The notes below the pieces were generated by a model, which worked only from the letters and a program-made list of their open reading frames with translations, had not been told where the DNA came from and did no database searches. From Squalus acanthias (taxonomy: Eukaryota): a DNA stretch of 64,000 nt. Positions 4,866 through 58,272 of this stretch are shown here, in pieces. The stretch lies in NCBI GenBank assembly GCA_030390025.1, contig CM059432.1, positions 78,494,001 through 78,558,000 on the forward strand. The letters are read 5' to 3'. Positions within the stretch are counted from its first letter, which is position 1, and every line of letters begins with the position of its first letter. The translations under genes were made by a program, and so were the position numbers.

Positions 4866-5025
4866 TTCCAGTAATTCAGTTATTCCAAACTTTGTTTATC
4901 TCAGTCAGACAATTAATTGTTTCTTAAATGTAATTCATTATTTACTTTGTTCAGTTATTGATTTATTCAAGTCAAATGATTATTGATTTATTTCTGTCAG
5001 TGAATTTAATACTTAATTCAGGAAT

Positions 5026-5112
5026 GGTAGCATAGTGGCTATGTTACTGGACTAGTAATCCAGAGGCCTGGACTAATGATCCAGAAACGTGAGTTCAAAT
5101 CCCACCACGGCA
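5026..5112 (+). promoter_or_regulatory. tRNA-derived internal Pol III promoter (A/B box) SINE-type head
   Basis: A box TAGCATAGTGG (5028-5038), B box GAGTTCAAATCCC (5091-5103), anticodon-like hairpin CTGGA-CTAGTAA-TCCAG. Confidence 0.75.
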
Positions 5113-5867
5113 GCTGGGGAATTTAAATTCAGTTAATCAAATAAATCTGGAATAAAAAGCTAGTATCAGTAATGGTGACCTTGAAACTATGGGATTGTCG
5201 TAGAAAAATATCTGGTTCACTAATGTCCTTTAGGGAAGGAAATCTGCCGTCCTTACCTGGTCTGGCCTATATGTGACTCCAGACCCACAGCAATGTGGTT
5301 GACTCTTAACTGCCCTCTGAAATGGCCTAGCAAGCCACTCAGTTGTAACAAACCGCTACGATAAACAATAATAAGAATAAAACCGGACGGACCACCTCGG
5401 CCTCGGCACCGGCTTCGGACACAACAACCGCACACCCAACCAAGTCGACCCTGCAAAGTCCTCCTCACTAACATCTGGGGACTTGTGCCAAAATTGGGAG
5501 TGCTGTCCCACAGACTAGTCAAGCAACTGCCTGACATAGTCATACTAACAGAATCATACCTTTCAGCCAATGTCCCAGACTCCTTCATCACCATCCCTGG
5601 GTATGTCCTGTTCCACCGGCAGGACAAACCCACCAGAGGTGGCGGCACAGTGGTATACAGTTGGAGGGAGGGGCCCTGGGAGTCCTCAACATTGACTGCG
5701 GACCCCATGAAATCATATGGCATCAGTTCAAACATGGGCAAGTAAACCTACTGATTACCACCTACCGCCCTCCCTCAGCTGATGAATCAGTACTCTTCCA
5801 TGTTGAACAGCACTTGGAAGAAGGGCACAGAATGTACTCTGGGTGGGGGACTTCAATGTCCATCACT

Positions 5868-7447
5868 CTTCTTCTTAGGCAGTCCCTCGGAACCGAGGAT
5901 GACTTGCTTCCACACTAAAAATGAGTTCTCAGGTGACTGATGAGTCCAATGCGGGACCTACAGTCTCTGTCACAGGTGGGGCAGACGGTGGTTGAAGGGG
6001 TGGTTGGGTGGGGTGCTTGGGTTGACGTGCGCTCCTTCCGCTGTTTGCGCTTGGCTTCCGCTTGCTCTCGGCGAAGAGACTCGAGGTGTTCAGCGCCTTC
6101 CCGGATGCTTCTCCTCCACTTTGTGCGGTCTTGGGCCAGGGATTCCCAGGTGTCGGTGGGGATATTGCACTTTTTCAAGGAGGCTTTGAGGGTGTCCTTG
6201 AAGCGTTTCCTCTGCCCACCTGGGGCTCTCTTGCCGTGTCAGAGCTCCGAGTAGAGTGCTTGTTTTGGGAGTCTCGTATCGGGCATGCGGACGATGTGGC
6301 CCGTCCATCGGAGCTGATCGAGCGTGGTCAAAGGTTCGATGCTGGGGATGTTGGCCTGAGCGAGAACACTAACGTTGGTGCGCCTATCCTGCCAATGGAT
6401 TTGCAGGATCTTGCGGAGGCAGCATTGGTGGTACCTCTCCAGTGCTTTGAGGTGCCTGCTGTACATGGTCCACGTCTCTGAAGCATACAGGAGGGCAGGT
6501 ATCACTACTGATCTGTAGACCATGAACTTGGTGCTGGGTTTGAGGTCCTGGTCTTCAAACACTCTCTTCCTCAGGTGACCGAAGGCTGCACTGGCACACT
6601 GAAGGCGGTGTTGGACTTCGTCATCGATGTCTGCCCTTGTTGACAGTAGGCTCCCGAGGTATGGAAAGTGGTCCACGTTGTCCAAGGCCTCATCATGGAT
6701 TTTAATAATCGGGGAGCAGTACTGTGTGGCGGGGGCAGGTTGGTAGAGGACTTTTGTCTTACGGATGTTTAGTGTAAGGCCTATGCTCTCATACGCTTCG
6801 GTGAAGGTGTTGACGATGGTTTGGAGTTCGACCTCAGAGTGTGCGCAGACGGAAGCATCGTCTGCATACTGTAATTCGATGACAGAGGATGGGACGACCA
6901 TGGTTGACGGCGTCGAAGGCCTTTGTGAGGTCAAAGAAGGCCATGTACAGTGGTTGGTGCTGTTCCCAGCATTTCTCTTGTAGTTGACGCGATGTGAAGA
7001 TCATGTCCATTGTGCCCCTTAGTGGGCAGGCTTTCCGCATTGCGACTCTGGGAGGAGCTCTTCAGCCACTGGGAGAAGGCGATTGAGGAGGATTCTTGCG
7101 ATGACTTTCCCTGTGGCAGACAGCAGGGAGACTCCTCTGTAATTACCGCAATCGGACGTGTCACCTTTCTTGAAGATGGTCACGATTACGGTATCTCTGA
7201 GGTCCCCTGGCATGCTCTCCTCCTTCCAAATAAGAGAAATGAGTTCATGCATTCGCACCAATAGTGCTTCTCTGCCATGTTTTGGCACCTCGGTGGGGAT
7301 TCCATCTGCTCCTGAGGCCTTCTTGTTCTTCAGTTGTCAGATGGCCTTTTCAACCTCATGCCGGGCTGGGGTTGTGCTGAGGTGGTGGCGGGTAGCATGC
7401 TGCGGGATGGAGTTGAGGACACTCGCGTCGAAGACAGAGTCTCGGTT
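5868..7447 (-). mobile_element. RTE-clade (BovB-like) LINE, 5'-truncated, internally deleted
   Basis: IVTIFKKGD.SDCGNYRGVSLLS, FFDLTKAFD, LQYADD, LRWTGHIVRMPDTRLPKQ, C-terminal CPTC..SRIGLISHLRTH, (AAG)n tail. Confidence 0.92.
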
Positions 7448-7910
7448 AAGAGTGGCTCAGCAGCACCACTACAGACCGAACTGGCCGAATCTTGAAGGAT
7501 ATAGCTGCCAGACTGGTCCTGCAACAGGTGGTGAGAGAACCAACACAAGGGAAAGACGAAGTCCCATCTTCACACTGAGGGCACCCTCCACCGTGTTGTG
7601 TGGCACTACCACTGTGGTAAATGGGATAGATTCAGAACCCACAACCAACGGATCAGCTCAAAGCTCTGCAGTCCTGCCACATCCAGTTGTGAATGGTGGT
7701 GGACCATTAAACAACTGACAGAAGGAGGAGGCACCATGAACAGCCCCATCCTCAATGATGGCAGAGCCCAGTTTGCGAGTGCAAAAGACAAGGCTGAAGC
7801 GTTTGCAACCATCTTCAGCCAGAAGTGCCAACTGGATGATCCATCTCAGTCTCCTACTGAGATCCCCACCATTACAGAAGCCAGTCTTCAGCCAATTCAA
7901 TTCACTCCAT

Positions 7911-8217
7911 GTGGCATAGTGGTTAGCACTGTTGCCTCACAGCGCCAGGGACCCGGGTTCGAATTCGGCCTCGGGTGACTGTCTGTGTGGAGTTTGCACA
8001 TTCTCCCCGTGTCTGCGTGGGTTTCCTCCGGGTGCTCCGGTTTCCTCCCACAGTCCAAAGATATGCGGGTTAGGTTGATTTGGCTATGATAAATTGACCC
8101 TTAGTGTTAGGGGGGATTAAATACGTGGGGTTACGGGGATAGGGTGGGATATGTGTCGGTGCAGGCTCGATGGGCCGAAATGGCCTCTATCTGCACTGTG
8201 GGGATTCTGTGATTCTG
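7911..8217 (+). mobile_element. HE1-like V-SINE (tRNA head, CR1-type tail)
   Basis: GTGGTTAGCACTGTTGCCTCACAGCGCCAGGGACCCGGGTTCGAAT head, V-domain GTGGAGTTTGCACATTCTCCCCGTGTCTGCGTGGGTTTCCTCCGGG, (GATTCTGT)n tail. Confidence 0.9.
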
Positions 8218-10327
8218 TGATATCAAGAAATGGCTGAGCGCACTGCATACTGCAAAGGCTGTGAGCCCCGATAATATCCCGGCTGTCATGCTGAAGACTT
8301 GTGTTCCAGACCTAGCCGCATCTCTAGCCAAGCTGTTCCAGTACAGCTACAACACTGGCATCTACTTGGCAATGTGGAAAACTGCCCAGGTGTGTCCTGT
8401 CCTCAAAAAACAGTCTACTCTCAATAATAAGCAAAGTGATGGAAGGTGTTGTCGACAGTGCAATCAAGTGGCACTTACTCACCAATAATCTGCTCACTGA
8501 TGCTCAGTTTGGGTTTCGCCAAGACCACTCGGCTCCAGACCTCATTACAGCCTTGGTCCAAACATGGACAAAAGAGCTGAATTCCAGAGGTGAGGTGAGA
8601 GTGACTGCCCTTGACATCAAGGCAGCATTTGACCGAGTGTGGCATCAAGGAGCCCTAGTAAAACTGAAGTCAATGGGAATCGGGGGGAAAACTCTCCACT
8701 GGCTGGAGTCATACCTAGCACAAAGGAAGATGGTTGTGCTGGTTGGAGGTCAATCATCTCAGCCCCAGGACATCGCTGCAGGAGTTCGTCAGGGCAGTGT
8801 CCTAGGCCCAACCATCTTCAGCTGCTTCATCAATGACCTTCCCTCCAACATGAGGTCAGAAATGGGGATGTTCGCTGATGACTGCACAGTGTGCCATTCG
8901 CAACTCCTCAGATAATGAAGCAATCTATGCCGCATGCAACAAGACCTGGATGATATTCAGGCTTGGGCTGATAAGTGGCAGGTAACATTCACGCCACACA
9001 ATGATTATCTCCAACAAGCGAGAGTCTAACCACCGACCCTTGACATTCAATGGCATTACCATCGCTGAATCCCCCACCATCAATATCCTGGGGGTCACCA
9101 TTGACCAGAAACTTAACTGGACCAGCCACATAAATACTGTGGCAACAAGAGCAGGTCAGAGGCTAGGTATTCTGTGGCGAGTGTCTCACCTCCTGATTCC
9201 CCAAAGCCTTTCCACCATCTACAAGGCACAAGTAAGGAGTGTGATGGAATACTCTCCACTTGCCTGGATGAGTGCAGTTCCAACAACACTCAAGAAGCTC
9301 GACACCATCCAGGACAAAGCAGCCCGCTTGATTGGCACCCCATCCACCACCTTAAACATTCACTCCCTCCACCACCGGCGTACCGTGGCTGCAGTGTGCA
9401 CCATCTACAAGATAAACTGCAGCAACTCGCCAAGGCTTCTTCAGCAGCACCTCCCAAACCTGCGATCTCTTCCACCTAGAAAGACAAGGGCAGCAGTCGC
9501 ATGGGAACACCACCACCTCCAAGTTCCACTCCAAGTCACACACCATCCTGACTTAGAAGTATATCGCCGATCCTTCATCGTCGCTGGGTCAAAATCCTGG
9601 GACTCCCTACCTAACAGCACTGTGGGAGTACCTTCACCACACGGATTGCAGCGGTTCAAGGCGGCGGCTCACCACCACCTTCTCAAGGGCAATTAGGGAT
9701 GGGCAATAAATGCTGGCCTTGCCAGCGACGCCCACATCCCATAAACAAATAAAAAATAGCTCTAGAGCTTTTAGAAGACAGCACAGTTTAGATGAATTGT
9801 ATTGCTTGTATCTGGAATGAAAGGTGAAGTGCATTTTTGTCTTTACTGCTGCGTGTATTCACATATTTTTGGCTTATGTAGCACTGCAAATGTATCCTTA
9901 AGATTTTCTATTTCCAGTCTACCTATGCACAATTGCTCCTTCTGTCATCCCGAGTTGATTTTGACTCTTTTGTGAAAAAGCTGTGTGCATAGATAAAACT
10001 TGCTTCATTCTAGTCTTATCCATGACAATGGGGATTATATAAAATAAAATTGTTCAATTCTGGCAGCAAACTTAGCAGTAGTTCAGACAGGGAGCAGCTG
10101 TTACCAATTACTCAAAATTGGGAGTAATGACAACTAATTGGGGCAAACTGCCCAGTATTTCTGCAGCTGAACCTTGGCATAAAGTATGTTTCAAGGTATA
10201 CAAATCTCATGTACATCATTCAGCACATTAACTTACAGGTCTGCAGTACCTGACATAAAAGTTATGTTTTTGCTCATAAATTTTAATAACATTTTTGATT
10301 TAGTTATCTGCATCTTTGCTTCCACAG

Positions 10328-10392: not shown

Positions 10393-10574
10393 GTAATGCA
10401 GTGAAAATTATTCAGACCTTCTGTGCCATCATAAAGGCTGCGGAGTGAGATGGATGTAATATCTGCTCCTGACCCCATTAGAGTATCAGAATTCAGATCA
10501 TTTAAACATTTTGGGCTATTCAAGAGTCTCAAAGCGTGGATCTCAGAAGTAGTTTGTTCCTCAGAAAAATAGAG

Positions 10575-10835
10575 TTGCATTTAGATAGCACCTTTCACCT
10601 CCTCAAACATCCCAAAACTCTTCACAGCCAATATTGTTAAGTAGGCAAATACAGCAGCCAATTTGCACACAAACAGCAATGAGCTGAATAATGACCAGTT
10701 AATTAGTTTTGATGGCATTGGTTGGGATATGAATGGTGGTTAGGACAGCCTGCTCTTTTTTGGAAAAAGTGCCATGGGATCTTCTACATTCTTCTGAACA
10801 GTAGATGGGGTTTTGGTTTAATGTCACAAGGAAAG
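10575..10835 (-). mobile_element. Degenerate DeuSINE copy
   Basis: Reverse complement resembles 57960-58260 (AGATCCCATGGCACT, AAATTGGCTG). Confidence 0.65.
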
Positions 10836-27249: not shown

Positions 27250-27386
27250 CAGGAAGTACCTTCACCACACGGACTGCACAGCTGTTCAAGAAGCCGGCTC
27301 ACCAGCACCTTTTCAAGGGCAACTAGGGATGGGCATAAATGCTGGCCTTGCCAGCGACGCCCACATCCCATGAACGAATAAAAAAA
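27250..27386 (+). mobile_element. 3' tail fragment of the 5026-9757 LINE family
   Basis: Matches 9625-9757. Confidence 0.8.
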
Positions 27387-28762: not shown

Positions 28763-28958
28763 CAGAGCTTGGAGACCAGAGCTTGGAGACCAGAGCTTGG
28801 AGACCAGAGCTTGGAGACCAGAGCTTGGAGACCAGAGCTTGGAGACCAGAGCTTGGAGACCAGAGCTTGGAGACCAGAGCTTGGAGACCAGAGCTTGGAG
28901 ACCAGAGCTTGGAGACCAGAGCTTGGAGACCAGAGCTTGGAGACCAGAGCTTGGAGAC
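28763..28958 (+). repeat. Perfect tandem repeat (CAGAGCTTGGAGAC)x14
   Basis: 14-bp unit, 14 identical copies. Confidence 0.97.
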
Positions 28959-30797
28959 ATCTGGTGAGCGCAGGAATCGGTGGGGAGGGAGGCGGGTGAG
29001 AGGTCTAACTGAAAAGGAGGAGTGGAGCCACAGAACCCAAGATCTCTAAGTTAATAGACAGGAGAGCAGACCTGCGGGAGAGTGAGAAGAGTGGCTGCAG
29101 ATAAAGGTAGGCCCGAGAGCCCAGAGCCCTGAGGGAGCGCGAGTGTCAGGGAGCAAGGTAAGTGATGTCAGCACAAGGGAAGGAACTGATTGGTGAGTAG
29201 CTGGTGATTGTTTTTTTTAAGTCTTAATTTTATTTCTGTTAAGTTACTTAATAGTCTATTAAGTAGAGGCATAACTGGGCACCTTGGTCCCGTGGAATGC
29301 ACATCTTGTGCCATGTGGGAACTCCAGGATGCTTCCCATGTCCTGGACAACCACGTGTGCAGGAGGTGTCATCAGCTTGAGGAGCTCAAGCTCCAGGTTT
29401 CGGAACTGGAGCACCAGCTGGCGTCACTGCGGTGCATCCGTGAGGCTGAGAGCTTCGTGGATAGCACATTTCAGGAGGTGGTCACCCCGTAAGAGTGTGC
29501 AGGCAGAGAGGGAATGGGTGACCGTCAGACAGACAAGGAGGACTGGACAGGTAGTGCAGGAGTCCCCTGAATGCAAGGGGGGGGGGGGGGAGGAAGATTG
29601 GGAAAGCAATAGTGATTGGAGATTCGATAGCTAGGCGTTTCTGCGGCCGCAGACATGATTCCAGGATGGTATGTTGCCTCCCTGTTGCCAGGGTCAAGGA
29701 TGTCACTGAGCGGCTGCAGAACACTCAGAAGGAGGAGGGTGAAAACAGCCAGAGGTCGTGGTCCATATCGGTATCAACAACATAGGAAGAAAGAGGGATG
29801 AGGTCCTGCAGGCAGATTTCAGGGAGCTCGGAAAGAAATTAAAAAGCAGGACCTCAAAGGTAGTAATCTCCGGATTACTCCCGATGCCATGAGCTAGTGA
29901 GTATAGAAATAGGAGGATAGAGCAGATGAATGTGTGGCTGGAGAGATGGTGCAGGAGGGAGGGCTTTGGATTCCTGGGGCATTGGGACCAGTTCTGGGGG
30001 AGGTGGGACCTGTACAGGCCAGACAGGTTGCATCTCAACAGAGCTGGGACCAATATCCTTGCGGGAAGGTTTGCTAGTGCTGTTGGGGAGGGTTTAAATT
30101 AATTTGGCATGGGGATGGGCACCAGGATGTAACATTAGAAAGGAGAAACAAGGTGCACAAAGGATGGGAGAGACAGATAGCACTAGAGTAAGAAATAGTA
30201 TGGTATTAGGTGGGGTCAGACTAAGAGAGAACACAGGATGGTCTAAGATAGGTTTACAGTTCATGTGTGTGAATGCACAAAGTGTGGTAAATAAGGTTGG
30301 TGAGCTGCAGGCGCAAATAGACACATGGGAATATGATGTCGTGGCGATAATGGAGACCTGGCTCAAAAAAGGGCAGGATTGGGTACTAAATATTCCTGGA
30401 TATAAGGTGTTCAGGAAAGTTAGGGAAACTAAAGAAAGGAGGTGGGGTGGCAGTATTGATTAAGAACAATATTACAGTGCTGGAGAGAGAGAATGTCCTG
30501 GAGGGGTCAAAGACAGAATCTATTTGGTTAGAGTTGAGAAACAATAGAGGTGCCATTACACTACTAGGTGTATTCTATAGGCCGCCAACTAGTGGGAAGG
30601 ATATAAAAGAGAAAATTTGCAGGGAGTTACAGAGAGGTGCAAGAACTATAGAGTAGTGATAATGGAGGATTTCAACTATCCTAATATAGACTGGGATAGT
30701 AATAGTGTAAAGCGCAGGGAGGGGGTAGAATTTCTGAAGTGTGTTCAGGAGAACTTTCTTGATCAGTACGTTTCCGGCCCAACGAGGAAGGAGGCAT

Positions 30798-31637
30798 ACC
30801 AACAGAAAGCGCTGGAAAAACTCAGCAGGCCAGGCAACATCCATGGAGAGAGAAACAGAGTTAATGTTTCAGGTCGAAGACCCTTCGTCAGAACTGAGAA
30901 AAAAGCAGGAAATGAAACAGATGAAAAAGCAAGTTGGAGGCTGGGGGAGGGAATGAAAGAACAAAAGGGGAGGTCTGTGAGAAGTAGAGACATTAAGAGA
31001 TGCTCAAGGCGAGACGAGATGGTAATAGGACAGGTTAAGAAACAAAAGATGGCTCAGAAGTGTGAATGGCGCTGGCAGGATGAAAGCGTAAGCTCGAGGA
31101 ACAGCACCTCATCTTCCGATTAGGCACTTTACAGCCTTCCGGGCTCAATATCGAGTTCAACAATTTCAGATCATAACCTCGGCCCCTACTATATATATAT
31201 ATATATATAGTAGGGGCCGAGGTTATGATCTGAAATGGTTGAACTCGATATTGAGTCCGGAAGGCTGTAAAGTGCCTAATCGGAAGATGAGGTGCTGTTC
31301 CTCGAGCTTACGCTTTCATCCTGCCAGCGCCATTCACACTTCTGAGCCATCTTTTGTTTCTTAACCTGTCCTATTACCATCTCGTCTCGCCTTGAGCATC
31401 TCTTAATGTCTCTACTTCTCACAGACCTCCCCTTTTGTTCTTTCATTCCCTCCCCCAGCCTCCAACTTGCTTTTTCATCTGTTTCATTTCCTGCTTTTTT
31501 CTCAGTTCTGACGAAGGGTCTTCGACCTGAAACATTAACTCTGTTTCTCTCTCCACGGATGTTGCCTGGCCTGCTGAGTTTTTCCAGCGCTTTCTGTTGG
31601 TATTTCAGTTTTCCAGCATCCGCAGTATTTTGCTATT
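30798..31637. mobile_element. Near-perfect ~800-bp Penelope-derived palindrome centred on (TA)n
   Basis: Arms 30798-31190 and 31210-31601; 14-bp TSD GAGGAAGGAGGCAT (30784-30797, 31638-31651); HHR motifs at 30859-30895 (-) and 31504-31540 (+). Confidence 0.92.
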
Positions 31638-56320: not shown

Positions 56321-56419
56321 TATATCTTTAGTCATCCAGAGAGCTCTAGCTTTGGATGCCCTTCCTTTCCCCCTTGTGGGAATGTGTCTACTCTGTACCC
56401 GAATTATCTCCTTTTTGTT

Positions 56420-56477
56420 ATTATTCGTTCCTGGGATGTGGGCGTCGCTGGCAAGGCCAGCATTTATTGCCCATCCC
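56420..56477 (-). mobile_element. Short tail fragment of the 5026-9757 LINE/SINE family
   Basis: Reverse complement of GGGATGGGCAATAAATGCTGGCCTTGCCAGCGACGCCCACATCCC. Confidence 0.75.
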
Positions 56478-57809
56478 TTTGAAGGCCTCCCATTGTTCAA
56501 TTGCTGTTTTGCCTACCAATTTTTGAGTCCAATCCACCTGGACTGGATCCCCAACTTATTGAAATTAGCCCTCTCCAGTTAAGTATTTTAATGTTTCATT
56601 GTTCCTTGTCCTTTTCCATTACTATTCTAAACCTGATGATATCATGATCACTGTTCCCAAATGCTGCCTAACTGAAACATGCTCCACTTTCCCCACTTCA
56701 TTCCCCAGAACTAGATCCAACACTACTTCATTCTTCGTTAAGCTGGAAATACGCTGATCAAGAAAGTTCTCTTGTACACATTTTGGGCATTCCTCCCCCT
56801 CTTTCCCCTTTACACTGTTACTATCCCAGTCTATATTAGGATAATTGAAGTCCCCATTATCACTACTCTATAGTATATACCCAGTAGTGTAATAGCTCCT
56901 CTATTGTTCCTGAATTCTAACCAAATAGATTCTGTCTTTGACCCCTCAACTACATCATTCCTTTCCAGTGCTAGAAGAGTTTTTTTGATCAATACTGCCA
57001 CCCCTCCTCCTCTTATTTCTTCCCTATCTTTCCTGAATACCTTGTAGCCAGGAATATTAAGTTCCTAATCCTCCCCTTCTTTGAGCCAGGTCTCTGTAAT
57101 TGCCACTATAGCATAGTCCCATGTGGCGACTTGTGCCTGCATCTCCCCAGCCTTATTTACCATGCTACATACATTTACGCACATGCACTCCAAACCCATC
57201 TTAGACCGTCTCATATTTGGCCCCCGTCTGATCCCTCCTATTTCTGAACTATTCTTTATTCTAGTGTTATTTGCCTCTCCCAGTCTTCTGTGGACCTTGT
57301 TTCTCCTCTCAAATCTTTCATCCTGGTCCCCAGCCCCCTGCCAAATTAGTTTAATTCCTCCCCCACAGCACTAGTTAAACTCCCCATGAGGACATCGGTC
57401 CTAGCCCTGTTGAGATGCAACCCATAGATCTTGAACAGGTCCCTCCTGCCCCAGAACTGGTCCCCAAGCCCCAGGAATCTGAAGGGCTCCCTCCTAAACC
57501 ATTTCTCCAGCCACATGTTAACCTACTATTCCTATACTCACTAGCGTATGGCACTGTGAGTAATCCAGAGATTCCTACCTTTAAATCCTGTTTCCTCTCT
57601 AGCTCCTGAAACTCTGACTGCAGGACCTCAACCCTTTTCCTTCCTATGTCATTGGTTCCCACAGGACCACAACTTCTGGCTGTTCCCCTTCCCCCCTCAA
57701 AATGTTCTTCACCCTCTCAGTGATGTCCTTTACCCTGGCACCAGGGAGGTAACACACCATGCAAGACTCATGTCAACAGTTGCAGAAACACCTATCTGTC
57801 CCCCTGACT

Positions 57810-58272
57810 TCCCACTGTGGCTCAGTTGGTAGTACTCTCGCCTCTGAGTCAGAAGGTTGTGGGCTCAAGTCCCACTCCGGAGACTTGAGCACAAAAATTT
57901 AGGCTGACACTCCAATGCAGTACTGAGGGAGTACTGCATCATTGAAGGTGCTGTCTTTTGGATGAGACATTAAACCAATCTGCCCTCTCAGGTGGATGTA
58001 AAAGATCCAATGGCACTATTTCGAAGAAAAGCAGGGGAGTTATCCTCGGTGTCCTGGCCAATAATTATCTCTCAATCAACATCACGGTAACAGATTGTCT
58101 GGTCATTATCACATTGCTGTTTGTGGGAGCTTCCTGTGTGCAAGTTGGCTGCCATGTTTCCTACTTTACAACAGTGACTACACTTCAAAAAGTATTTCAT
58201 TGGTTGTAAAGCGCTTTGGGACGTCCGGTGGTCGTGAATGACACTATATAAATACAAGTCTTTCTTTCTTCT
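57810..58272 (+). mobile_element. DeuSINE (SacSINE1/AmnSINE-like), full length
   Basis: tRNA head TGGCTCAGTTGGTAG...CAAGTCCC, Deu domain GGATGAGACATTAAACC...CAGGTGGATGTAAAAGATCC, L2-type tail TATATAAATACAAGTC(TTTC)n. Confidence 0.85.

Follow-up and report, generated by a model that had tools for sequence, protein, structure and literature searches.

A tRNA-like head at the 5' end of elasmobranch Zenon LINEs, seen in a decayed Squalus acanthias copy, and its possible bearing on transcription and SINE birth

A decayed Zenon-type LINE

The window, that is, the whole 64,000-nt stretch of Squalus acanthias DNA analysed here, contains a broken copy of an elasmobranch Zenon-type LINE of the CR1 group (Table 1). 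A sequence-only reading had described positions 5026-9757 as one contiguous LINE; its 5' end has been moved to about 5021, and the copy turns out to be interrupted by an antisense reverse transcriptase (RT) element, a tRNA SINE and deletions. In all, 2,849 nt of LINE sequence remain, and about 465 nt are absent when compared with a 3,314-character consensus. The nested RT element, for which no target site duplication (TSD) was found, is presumably RTE-like, and the nested SINE is one that we take to be V-type (HE1-like). No TSD enclosing the whole unit, a feature that the sequence-only reading had proposed to look for, was found at this locus.

Table 1. Parts of the element and of the sequences nested in it (positions in the window)
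Feature	Positions	Strand	Remarks
tRNA-like head	5021..5106	+	Rfam tRNA model match; acceptor stem not formed (read from sequence)
SINE-like body acting as LINE 5' UTR	5107..5359	+	Shared by 7/7 elasmobranch Zenon consensuses; not a Deu domain
A-rich linker, predicted unpaired	5360..5397	+	By-eye comparison with consensuses
Arg-rich extension and N-terminal part of AP-endonuclease	5398..5866	+	Frameshifts near 5660 and 5740, small deletion near 5820
Nested 5'-truncated RT element, C-terminal C2H2 zinc finger, (AAG)n tail	5867..7447	-	Foreign to the LINE
LINE resumes (WLSSTTTDRTG): endonuclease end and linker	7448..7913	+	Internal deletions
Nested tRNA SINE, (ATTCTGTG)n tail	7914..8219	+	TGTG at both junctions; foreign to the LINE
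Reverse transcriptase and C-terminal region to TAG stop	8220..9696	+	Frameshifted
Short 3' UTR hairpin and A-rich tail	9697..9756	+	Fold z -2.68 for 9640-9757

The assignment rests on the published elasmobranch Zenon consensuses (SquAca_Zenon-1, -2 and -3, CarCar, RhiTyp, ScyCan and HypSab_Zenon-1; PMC13343379), which were extended automatically from RT seeds and inspected afterwards, and of which the first 400 nt were compared with the window. Positions 5020-5359 are identical to SquAca_Zenon-1 at 324 of 340 nt (95%) in an ungapped by-eye alignment. The copy shares with this family a single APE-RT ORF, the lack of ORF1, an A-rich tail and a length of about 3.3 kb, and differs from the consensuses in its two insertions, deletions and frameshifts. 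The RT (Pfam RVT_1, E 1e-25) and the 3' tail named in the earlier reading are both present. A Pfam search of the endonuclease pieces gave no match, and these pieces align with the Pfam-annotated endonuclease-RT proteins P0216 and P0217. ORF1 is indeed absent, as had been noted: about 340 nt precede the linker, and the longest ATG-initiated ORF in them has 34 codons. Published work gives this absence as common to all Zenon elements (PMC13343379). The tail, a hairpin followed by A6 at 9751-9756, is poly-A and not a microsatellite, and the two further tail copies in the window (27252-27385 on the plus strand and 56418-56478 on the minus strand), both 5'-truncated, also end A-rich. A 33-row RT tree, whose rows include no labelled Zenon reference and from which two candidate rows were omitted as too short, separates the element from the four canonical CR1 pieces of the window and places it close to cyprinid relatives (89/88 support, unstarred).

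The tRNA-like head is a family feature

Both Pol III promoter boxes are exact matches, the A box TAGCATAGTGG at 5028-5038 and the B box GTTCAAATC at 5093-5101, and when the 5' region was shuffled 5,000 times, an A and a B box at such spacing arose once. Between them lies the anticodon-like hairpin (5047-5063, loop CTAGTAA) with an 89% duplicate at 5068-5085; boxes, hairpin and imperfect duplicate are all present, as had been described. The Rfam tRNA model matches 5027-5106 with 23.8 bits, short of its gathering score (29), with E 0.01 in one search and 0.13 in another; this sub-threshold match was the only one in an Rfam search of the element, and ARAGORN called no tRNA on the head. The D, anticodon and T arms can pair, and the acceptor stem is unable to form: the bases past the T arm do not complement those at 5021-5027, and the Rfam match begins at model position 7. 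The 5' end of the element corresponds approximately to tRNA position +1, with the A box at +8.

The head opens all seven elasmobranch Zenon consensuses, which come from five species including a ray, and is almost certainly a family-level feature (by eye). The A-box pattern is kept in 7/7 consensuses and the B box in 6/7, one consensus missing the B-box C, while the spacer between the boxes varies; the A box starts 6-11 nt from the consensus 5' ends (by eye in each case). The proposed 'Thr-AGT-like' identity of the anticodon loop does not hold up equally well, its centre being AGT in 5/7 consensuses and ATT in one, with the arm gapped in the remaining one (by eye). This head lies unremarked inside published consensus sequences; the main text of that publication has no occurrence of 'tRNA' or 'pol III' (PMC13343379).

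Beyond the elasmobranch consensuses, 152 related loci came from an RT-based metagenome scan, and 80 of them, with identities mostly of 24-39%, were retained. No head-like sequence is present in any of the 80, few of them being close relatives with 5' ends, and ARAGORN found no tRNA at the 45 loci scanned, a weak result since the program misses the head of the window copy too. The body pattern had no match in viral and metagenome contigs.

The head-endonuclease junction and the start codon

As the earlier reading had it, the body of about 250 bp passes into the AP-endonuclease frame without an A-tail. The fusion of head and endonuclease is a property of the family and extends beyond this one locus. 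All seven consensuses have the head and then the same linker; P0037 and P0040, among 243 proteins compared, match the translated body, and P0036, P0037 and P0040, all whale-shark gene models, join the translated body to the endonuclease. The sequence-only reading had named two findings that would overturn it, a junction unique to this locus and full-length copies with a conventional 5' UTR or ORF1 upstream of the endonuclease; instead, the junction is shared by the seven consensuses and three gene models, and every one of the consensuses starts with the head. Sampled words of 5026-5860 were 51-59% present in DNA runs of five organisms, a figure that is not evidence for the junction itself.

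The same reading had pointed to a frame open from 5365 without an ATG. Such a frame is present in the window copy, although it is a hybrid that arose as an accident of this copy. An ATA at 5377-5379 replaces the family ATG, which is kept in 6/7 consensuses (by eye), and a 5-nt deletion after the ATA in the window copy fuses the ATG frame with the endonuclease frame (by eye). The suggested inspection of the consensuses for an initiation codon gives a divided answer: an ATG is there in six of seven, but in five of these six it is out of the endonuclease frame, SquAca_Zenon-2 being the one in which it is in frame. The translation problem raised earlier is real, in that no conserved in-frame ATG stands ahead of the first endonuclease motif. 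The body contains several short upstream ORFs, including ATG-GCC-TAG at 5322-5330, and none of the nine upstream ATGs of the window copy yields an endonuclease protein. Read-through from ATG-GCC-TAG (5322) into the endonuclease was considered and rejected: it is in frame in 3/7 consensuses, and a second stop, TAA at 5346, blocks it in the window copy and in all three consensuses from SquAca. By eye, the overlap shows no standard slippery heptamer, and the 5' 379 nt fold no better than shuffled sequences (z -1.32).

Scarcity of T-runs on the sense strand

The sense strand of the window copy, which the sequence-only reading had proposed to examine for T4+ Pol III terminators, has no TTTT in its 2,849 nt. 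By comparison, six canonical CR1 pieces of the same window have 32 in 12,471 nt, and 18 LINE-type ORFs that are unrelated but similar in T content have 74 in 45.8 kb, none of the 18 being free of TTTT. The observed/expected ratio of TTT (0.33) lies under that of each of the 41 control ORFs, of which the lowest has 0.35. Of the 80 metagenome loci, the two most closely related have 2 and 4 TTTT in 1.7 and 2.0 kb, respectively, and the hagfish and coelacanth Zenon consensuses (3/3, first 400 nt) have TTTT and no head. How unusual the deficit is depends on the control: P is 0.008 under base shuffling, 0.108 under dinucleotide shuffling, 0.061 under synonymous shuffling and about 0.08 when averaged across the rates of 17 control ORFs. 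Part of it is explained by a general bias toward C-ending codons, the TTT:TTC ratio of Phe codons (5:12) being the same as that of other T/C-ending codon pairs (30:74). With 1 TTTT in 1,583 nt, the antisense RT element nested in the LINE is likewise poor in T-runs.

Origin and expression of the chimera

Judged from sequence, a role for Pol III as the main polymerase of elasmobranch Zenon is evenly poised, and so is a combined model of SINE capture, Pol III transcription, non-standard translation and SINE formation by deletion. The exact promoter boxes and the TTTT-free sense strand speak for Pol III indirectly. An ancestor would have taken the 5' part of a tRNA SINE through template switching in reverse transcription, and the chimera would have become the master lineage prior to the split of sharks and rays. 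This direction of transfer, from SINE to LINE, is the one we somewhat favor. Pol III would initiate near 5021, transcribe about 3.3 kb, which a strand without T-runs may allow, and terminate in the flanking sequence, like source copies of SINEs. Because the conserved AUG is out of the endonuclease frame, the uncapped RNA would be translated inefficiently from a non-standard internal start within or close to the linker, a mechanism that we hold to be less likely than not; a low protein yield could be enough, provided that the protein acts on the RNA that encodes it. Loss of the coding middle would then leave a ready-made head and tail SINE. The strongest form of the proposal, an autonomous 3.3-kb coding lineage, maintained in both sharks and rays, transcribed by Pol III from a tRNA-type internal promoter, its coding strand purged of terminators, with an uncapped RNA lacking an in-frame AUG and producing its own SINE by a single internal deletion, is possible but doubtful.

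The head could be fixed in the family while Pol II makes the RNA, starting at a promoter inside the body or reading through from host promoters, in which case the head would be a relic of capture or an insulator or enhancer bound by TFIIIC. We consider this less likely than not. It agrees with the view of LINEs as Pol II transcripts (Kojima, 2024), with the AATAAA-like words carried by the tail and with a T-run deficit for which the dinucleotide, codon and rate-matched controls give no better than P 0.06-0.11, and a cap would make translation easier; however, the nine upstream ATGs would impede cap-dependent scanning, the boxes have been kept while the spacer between them changed, and the consensus 5' ends lie ahead of the A box at a SINE-like distance. 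The order of events may also be the reverse, from LINE to SINE as in the sequence-only reading: a tRNA or pseudogene would first have supplied the LINE with its head, and any SINE with such a head and tail would be an internal-deletion derivative of the LINE, which fits either polymerase. This is a plausible reading, a little short of even, and the capture of a SINE 5' module by a LINE is at least as likely. The body is unlike both the Deu SINEs and the nested SINE, which leaves no independent SINE source identified in the window, and deletion derivatives are known from butterfly Zenon (PMC6740152). Against this, no head and tail copy was seen in the 64-kb window, in which both extra tail copies are 5'-truncated, the non-elasmobranch Zenons are headless in their first 400 nt, and module exchange by template switching is the usual published route (PMC5499810, PMC4824008).

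The two remaining explanations carry far less weight. Cleavage of a host read-through RNA by RNase P at the 5' end of the head, which would make the head a processing signal like the self-cleaving ribozymes of R2 and RTE, would suit the position of the 5' end near tRNA +1 with the A box at +8, the pairable D, anticodon and T arms, and the 5' ribozymes known in six LINE clades (PMC5786205). The head cannot form an acceptor stem, which makes this quite improbable. RNase P requires an acceptor stem. A chance fusion of a SINE with a truncated LINE at one locus, or an artefact of extending consensuses automatically, is the least probable of all and already largely refuted: the lack of a TSD around the unit and the automatic extension from RT seeds speak for it, but the junction recurs in the consensuses of five species, in three whale-shark gene models and in the raw window copy.

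Reviews assign LINEs, and non-LTR retrotransposons in general, to Pol II and SINEs to Pol III, the processivity of Pol III limiting length (Kojima, 2024). Retention of a tRNA-type promoter by a LINE lineage throughout sharks and rays would, if transcription runs as proposed, break this division; long coding transcripts made by Pol III, and translation that needs neither a cap nor an AUG, could then be tested in a natural system. A coding element that carries head, body and tail would also provide a direct route to SINE birth and bear on the origin of SINE bodies. Even under Pol II, repeat libraries will mis-split such copies into a SINE and a truncated LINE.

Comparison with known SINEs and other retroelements

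Identity of the body with the Deu domain of SacSINE1 was considered and rejected, the Deu motifs of the window lying at 10768-10783 and 57948-58017 and being absent from the element. Against the two Deu SINE copies of the window, the body scores 23 and 18, at or under the shuffle mean, and the tail scores 22 and 19, at shuffle level. Head, body and tail likewise gave shuffle-level scores against the nested SINE, and V-SINE (HE1) membership was not found. LF-SINE was also considered for the body, its sequence probably being different. Published DeuSINEs (SacSINE1 and LmeSINE1; PMC5499810, PMC3747384) are shark SINEs, about 460 bp long, that start with a tRNA head and end in a LINE-type tail; in contrast to them, the element lacks Deu motifs, which the two other SINE copies of the window carry, and its body and tail are not alignable with those copies. 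With tRNA-derived SINEs (SINE2) in general it shares a tRNA-like head at the 5' end, A and B boxes included, but it is neither short nor non-coding, holding 2,849 nt of LINE sequence with endonuclease and RT.

Full-text literature searches with motifs of the element returned no relevant paper. A partial precedent for a tRNA-bearing LINE is RTE-1_DAn, which with its relatives is said to hold a tRNA-like sequence matching SINE2 elements, that publication being the only one found to couple the name with 'tRNA' (Kojima, 2018; PMC5786205); these LINEs are of the RTE clade, and the one-sentence mention does not state the position or function of the tRNA-like part. As to SINE middles, only RTE and Vingi were found to contribute (PMC5786205). 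The bipartite LINE-derived SINEs Bov-tA, SINE2_Gav and CoeSINE4 combine a tRNA head with 5' and 3' LINE parts (PMC5786205), but they have the head on the SINE only, whereas in elasmobranch Zenon it is on the coding LINE. TRIMp3 elements (Cassandra, Helenus and Ajax) are also non-SINE retroelements with a Pol III promoter derived from a small RNA, although they are non-autonomous, non-coding, of LTR type and at most about 1.3 kb long (PMC10886601). Finally, the butterfly Persaeus SIDE is likewise coupled to a Zenon LINE as a derivative that joins its 5' and 3' parts after internal deletion, but this derivative has no homology to tRNA, 5S or 7SL and no Pol III promoter (PMC6740152).

Structure of the window copy

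The decayed Zenon copy (CR1 group) begins at about 5021 with a tRNA-like head, in which exact A-box and B-box patterns stand at a spacing that both reach in 1 of 5,000 shuffles of the element's 5' region. The Rfam tRNA model spans 5027-5106 at 23.8 bits, below the family threshold of 29, and ARAGORN called no tRNA at the head. A body of about 250 nt and an A-rich linker run without a tail into the AP-endonuclease frame. Two nested elements interrupt the LINE, of which 2,849 nt are LINE-only sequence, and alignment with full-length relatives places internal deletions between 7550 and 7700 and reveals several frameshifts. The RT and C-terminal region finish at 9696, after which a hairpin (z -2.68) and A6 reach 9756. 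A search for TSDs at this copy found none. The head occurs once in the 64-kb window, which also holds two 5'-truncated tail copies (27252 and 56418). The nested antisense RT element shows no TSD, its sequence is discontinuous near 6905-7020, and it may have undergone rearrangement of its own.

Features of the Zenon copy and other repeats in the window
Feature	Position	Strand	Remark
A box	5028-5038	+	exact pattern match
Anticodon-like hairpin	5047-5063		
Duplicate of the hairpin	5068-5085		89% identity
B box	5093-5101	+	exact pattern match
Antisense RT element with C2H2 finger	5867-7447	-	interrupts LINE; presumably RTE-like
Second tRNA SINE	7914-8219	+	interrupts LINE; taken by us to be V-type/HE1
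Second Deu-domain SINE copy	about 10560-10830	-	contains Deu motifs at 10768-10783
Tandem array	28763-28958		perfect; 14-nt unit, 14 copies
Long inverted duplication	30796-31606		centre near 31200, inside a repeat
Deu SINE copy	57813-58272	+	complete-looking, ~460 bp; tRNA head, Deu motifs (57948-58017), TCTT-type tail

The head as a family trait

The copy was compared with ten vertebrate Zenon consensuses, using the first 400 nt of each (PMC13343379 supplement). By eye, SquAca_Zenon-1 is identical to window positions 5020-5359 at 324 of 340 sites without a gap. Within these 400 nt, head and body open all seven elasmobranch consensuses (CarCar, HypSab, RhiTyp, ScyCan and SquAca-1, -2 and -3, from five species, one a ray) and are followed by the same linker; by eye, the A-box pattern is present in all seven and the B-box pattern in six, with a variable stretch in between. 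No such head is found in the first 400 nt of the three non-elasmobranch consensuses (two hagfish, one coelacanth). Independently of the consensuses, three whale-shark gene models (P0036, P0037, P0040) fuse the translated body to the endonuclease; since these models are possibly spliced, they support the adjacency of the two parts and not the exact junctions. The head-endonuclease junction first noticed at this locus is thus a family trait, and a one-off SINE/LINE fusion here is nearly excluded. PMC13343379 gives denominators of 294 to 2,313 copies for four elasmobranch Zenon families, and of 59 and 396 for another two; in the copy cell of SquAca_Zenon-1 stands a date-mangled number, which we infer to be 6/3750. 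The same source describes all Zenon elements as lacking ORF1 and carrying poly-A tails, so that the missing ORF1 is borne out as an already published trait.

In an RT tree of 33 rows, none of them a labelled Zenon, the element stands apart from the window's canonical CR1 copies. The terms 'tRNA' and 'pol III' have zero occurrences in the main text of PMC13343379, and full-text literature searches, with most matches judged by their listing, brought up neither a tRNA-headed Zenon nor a Pol III-transcribed coding LINE. The head-LINE architecture is real and extends across this published LINE family, where it seems to have gone without comment.

By eye, the arms of the second hairpin (5068-5085) read CTGG/CCAG in the window and the SquAca consensuses and CCAG/CTGG in CarCar, RhiTyp and ScyCan, so that two pairs are altered on both sides and one is disrupted; in HypSab most of the arm is missing. 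There are hints here of a conserved RNA structure.

Translation of the endonuclease frame

The frame reported as open from 5365 proves to be an accident of the window copy, which has ATA at 5377 where six of the seven consensuses show ATG, and a 5-nt deletion that fuses the ATG frame with the endonuclease frame. As judged by eye in the first 400 nt, the conserved ATG is shifted by one base relative to the endonuclease frame; this can be read directly in HypSab and follows from the register in CarCar, RhiTyp, ScyCan and SquAca-1. The ORF that begins there is short, about 45 codons, and overlaps the beginning of the endonuclease. SquAca-2, whose consensus has apparent gaps, has the ATG in frame, and SquAca-3 has lost it. 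Upstream, the endonuclease frame reads as an Arg-rich extension resembling the one in P0183, a full-length relative that begins with Met. Gene models P0035, P0036, P0038 and P0041 change frame at differing points, as expected of decayed copies chosen by a gene finder. Since most consensuses have this ATG out of frame and none of the nine ATGs upstream of the linker in the window copy yields the protein, the translation puzzle holds at the family level, with one consensus (SquAca-2) speaking against it.

An ATG-GCC-TAG mini-ORF (5322-5330) is kept in six of the seven consensuses over the same 400 nt and is in frame with the endonuclease in three, with CAA after the stop. The related LINE proteins P0217 and P0225 carry a GD(I/V)xxNPGP motif, which we take to be 2A-like, directly before the endonuclease; it is absent from the shark element. 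A cyprinid fish family (P0195, P0198, P0204, P0207) groups near the element's RT, and its predicted proteins begin inside the endonuclease, so that this family, too, may be without an upstream ATG.

Transcription and origin of the head

The terminator check raised by the sequence-only reading was run on the window copy. The element's sense strand has no TTTT and 12 AAAA runs in 2,849 nt, against 32 TTTT runs in 12,471 nt of the window's six canonical CR1 pieces, which are mutually related; these favour T-ending codons and the element C-ending ones, so that the contrast is partly one of codon bias. Controls were drawn from 80 metagenome loci (of 152 related), 41 of which have an ORF of at least 400 aa. 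Two of the 41 ORFs, each with a T content below 0.18, lack TTTT; the 18 that resemble the element in T content hold 74 runs in 45.8 kb, none being run-free. The probability of zero TTTT is 0.008 under base shuffling, 0.108 under dinucleotide shuffling, 0.061 under synonymous shuffling (1,980 coding nt) and 0.083 as the mean over 17 control rates (one of the 18 lying outside the unrounded T range). Two observations count against a specific cause: the Phe TTT:TTC ratio of 5:12 equals the element's overall third-position T:C ratio (30:74), and the nested antisense element has one TTTT run in 1,583 nt. The first TTTT downstream is at 9769, in the flank. The absence of TTTT thus stands for the window copy, but the deficit weakens under dinucleotide, codon and rate controls; as a Pol III signal it is suggestive, modest after codon-bias control and not decisive.

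We hold it an even call that the head acts as the element's promoter by recruiting Pol III, in which case uncapped RNA would be translated by non-standard initiation near the linker, a stretch that fold prediction leaves unpaired. The main rival, tentative and well short of even, is that Pol II makes the RNA and the head is a relic or a TFIIIC site. RNase P processing at the head is unlikely because no acceptor stem forms. As to the direction of exchange, we lean towards the LINE having captured a SINE's 5' module through template switching, which fits both the headless first 400 nt of the non-elasmobranch Zenons and the module exchange published in PMC5499810 and PMC4824008. The reverse, LINE-to-SINE deletion as originally proposed, is somewhat less probable, and both may have occurred in turn. 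No SINE combining this head with the tail was seen in the sequences covered.

Relation to other repeats and host genes

A Deu-domain identity of the body was rejected, the published Deu alignment (PMC7245038 supplement) having no match to it. Deu motifs occur elsewhere in the window, in two SINE copies that score 171 against each other (shuffle maximum 46); the described size of SacSINE1 fits the complete-looking one. The element's body and tail reach shuffle-level scores against both Deu copies and the nested SINE, and its head is marginally alike (score 28, equalled in 6 of 300 shuffles). Body positions 5225-5298 weakly resemble the 3' end of the element's own ORF (9545-9625; local score 39, maximum 30 in 300 shuffles, ten pairs having been compared in all). 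Either an older related LINE may have left a relic of its tail in the body, or the resemblance may be due to chance. Pieces of the LINE's C-terminal frame are contained in annotated shark host-gene isoforms (P0010, P0011, P0012, P0020, P0031, P0033), through either exonisation or annotation error.
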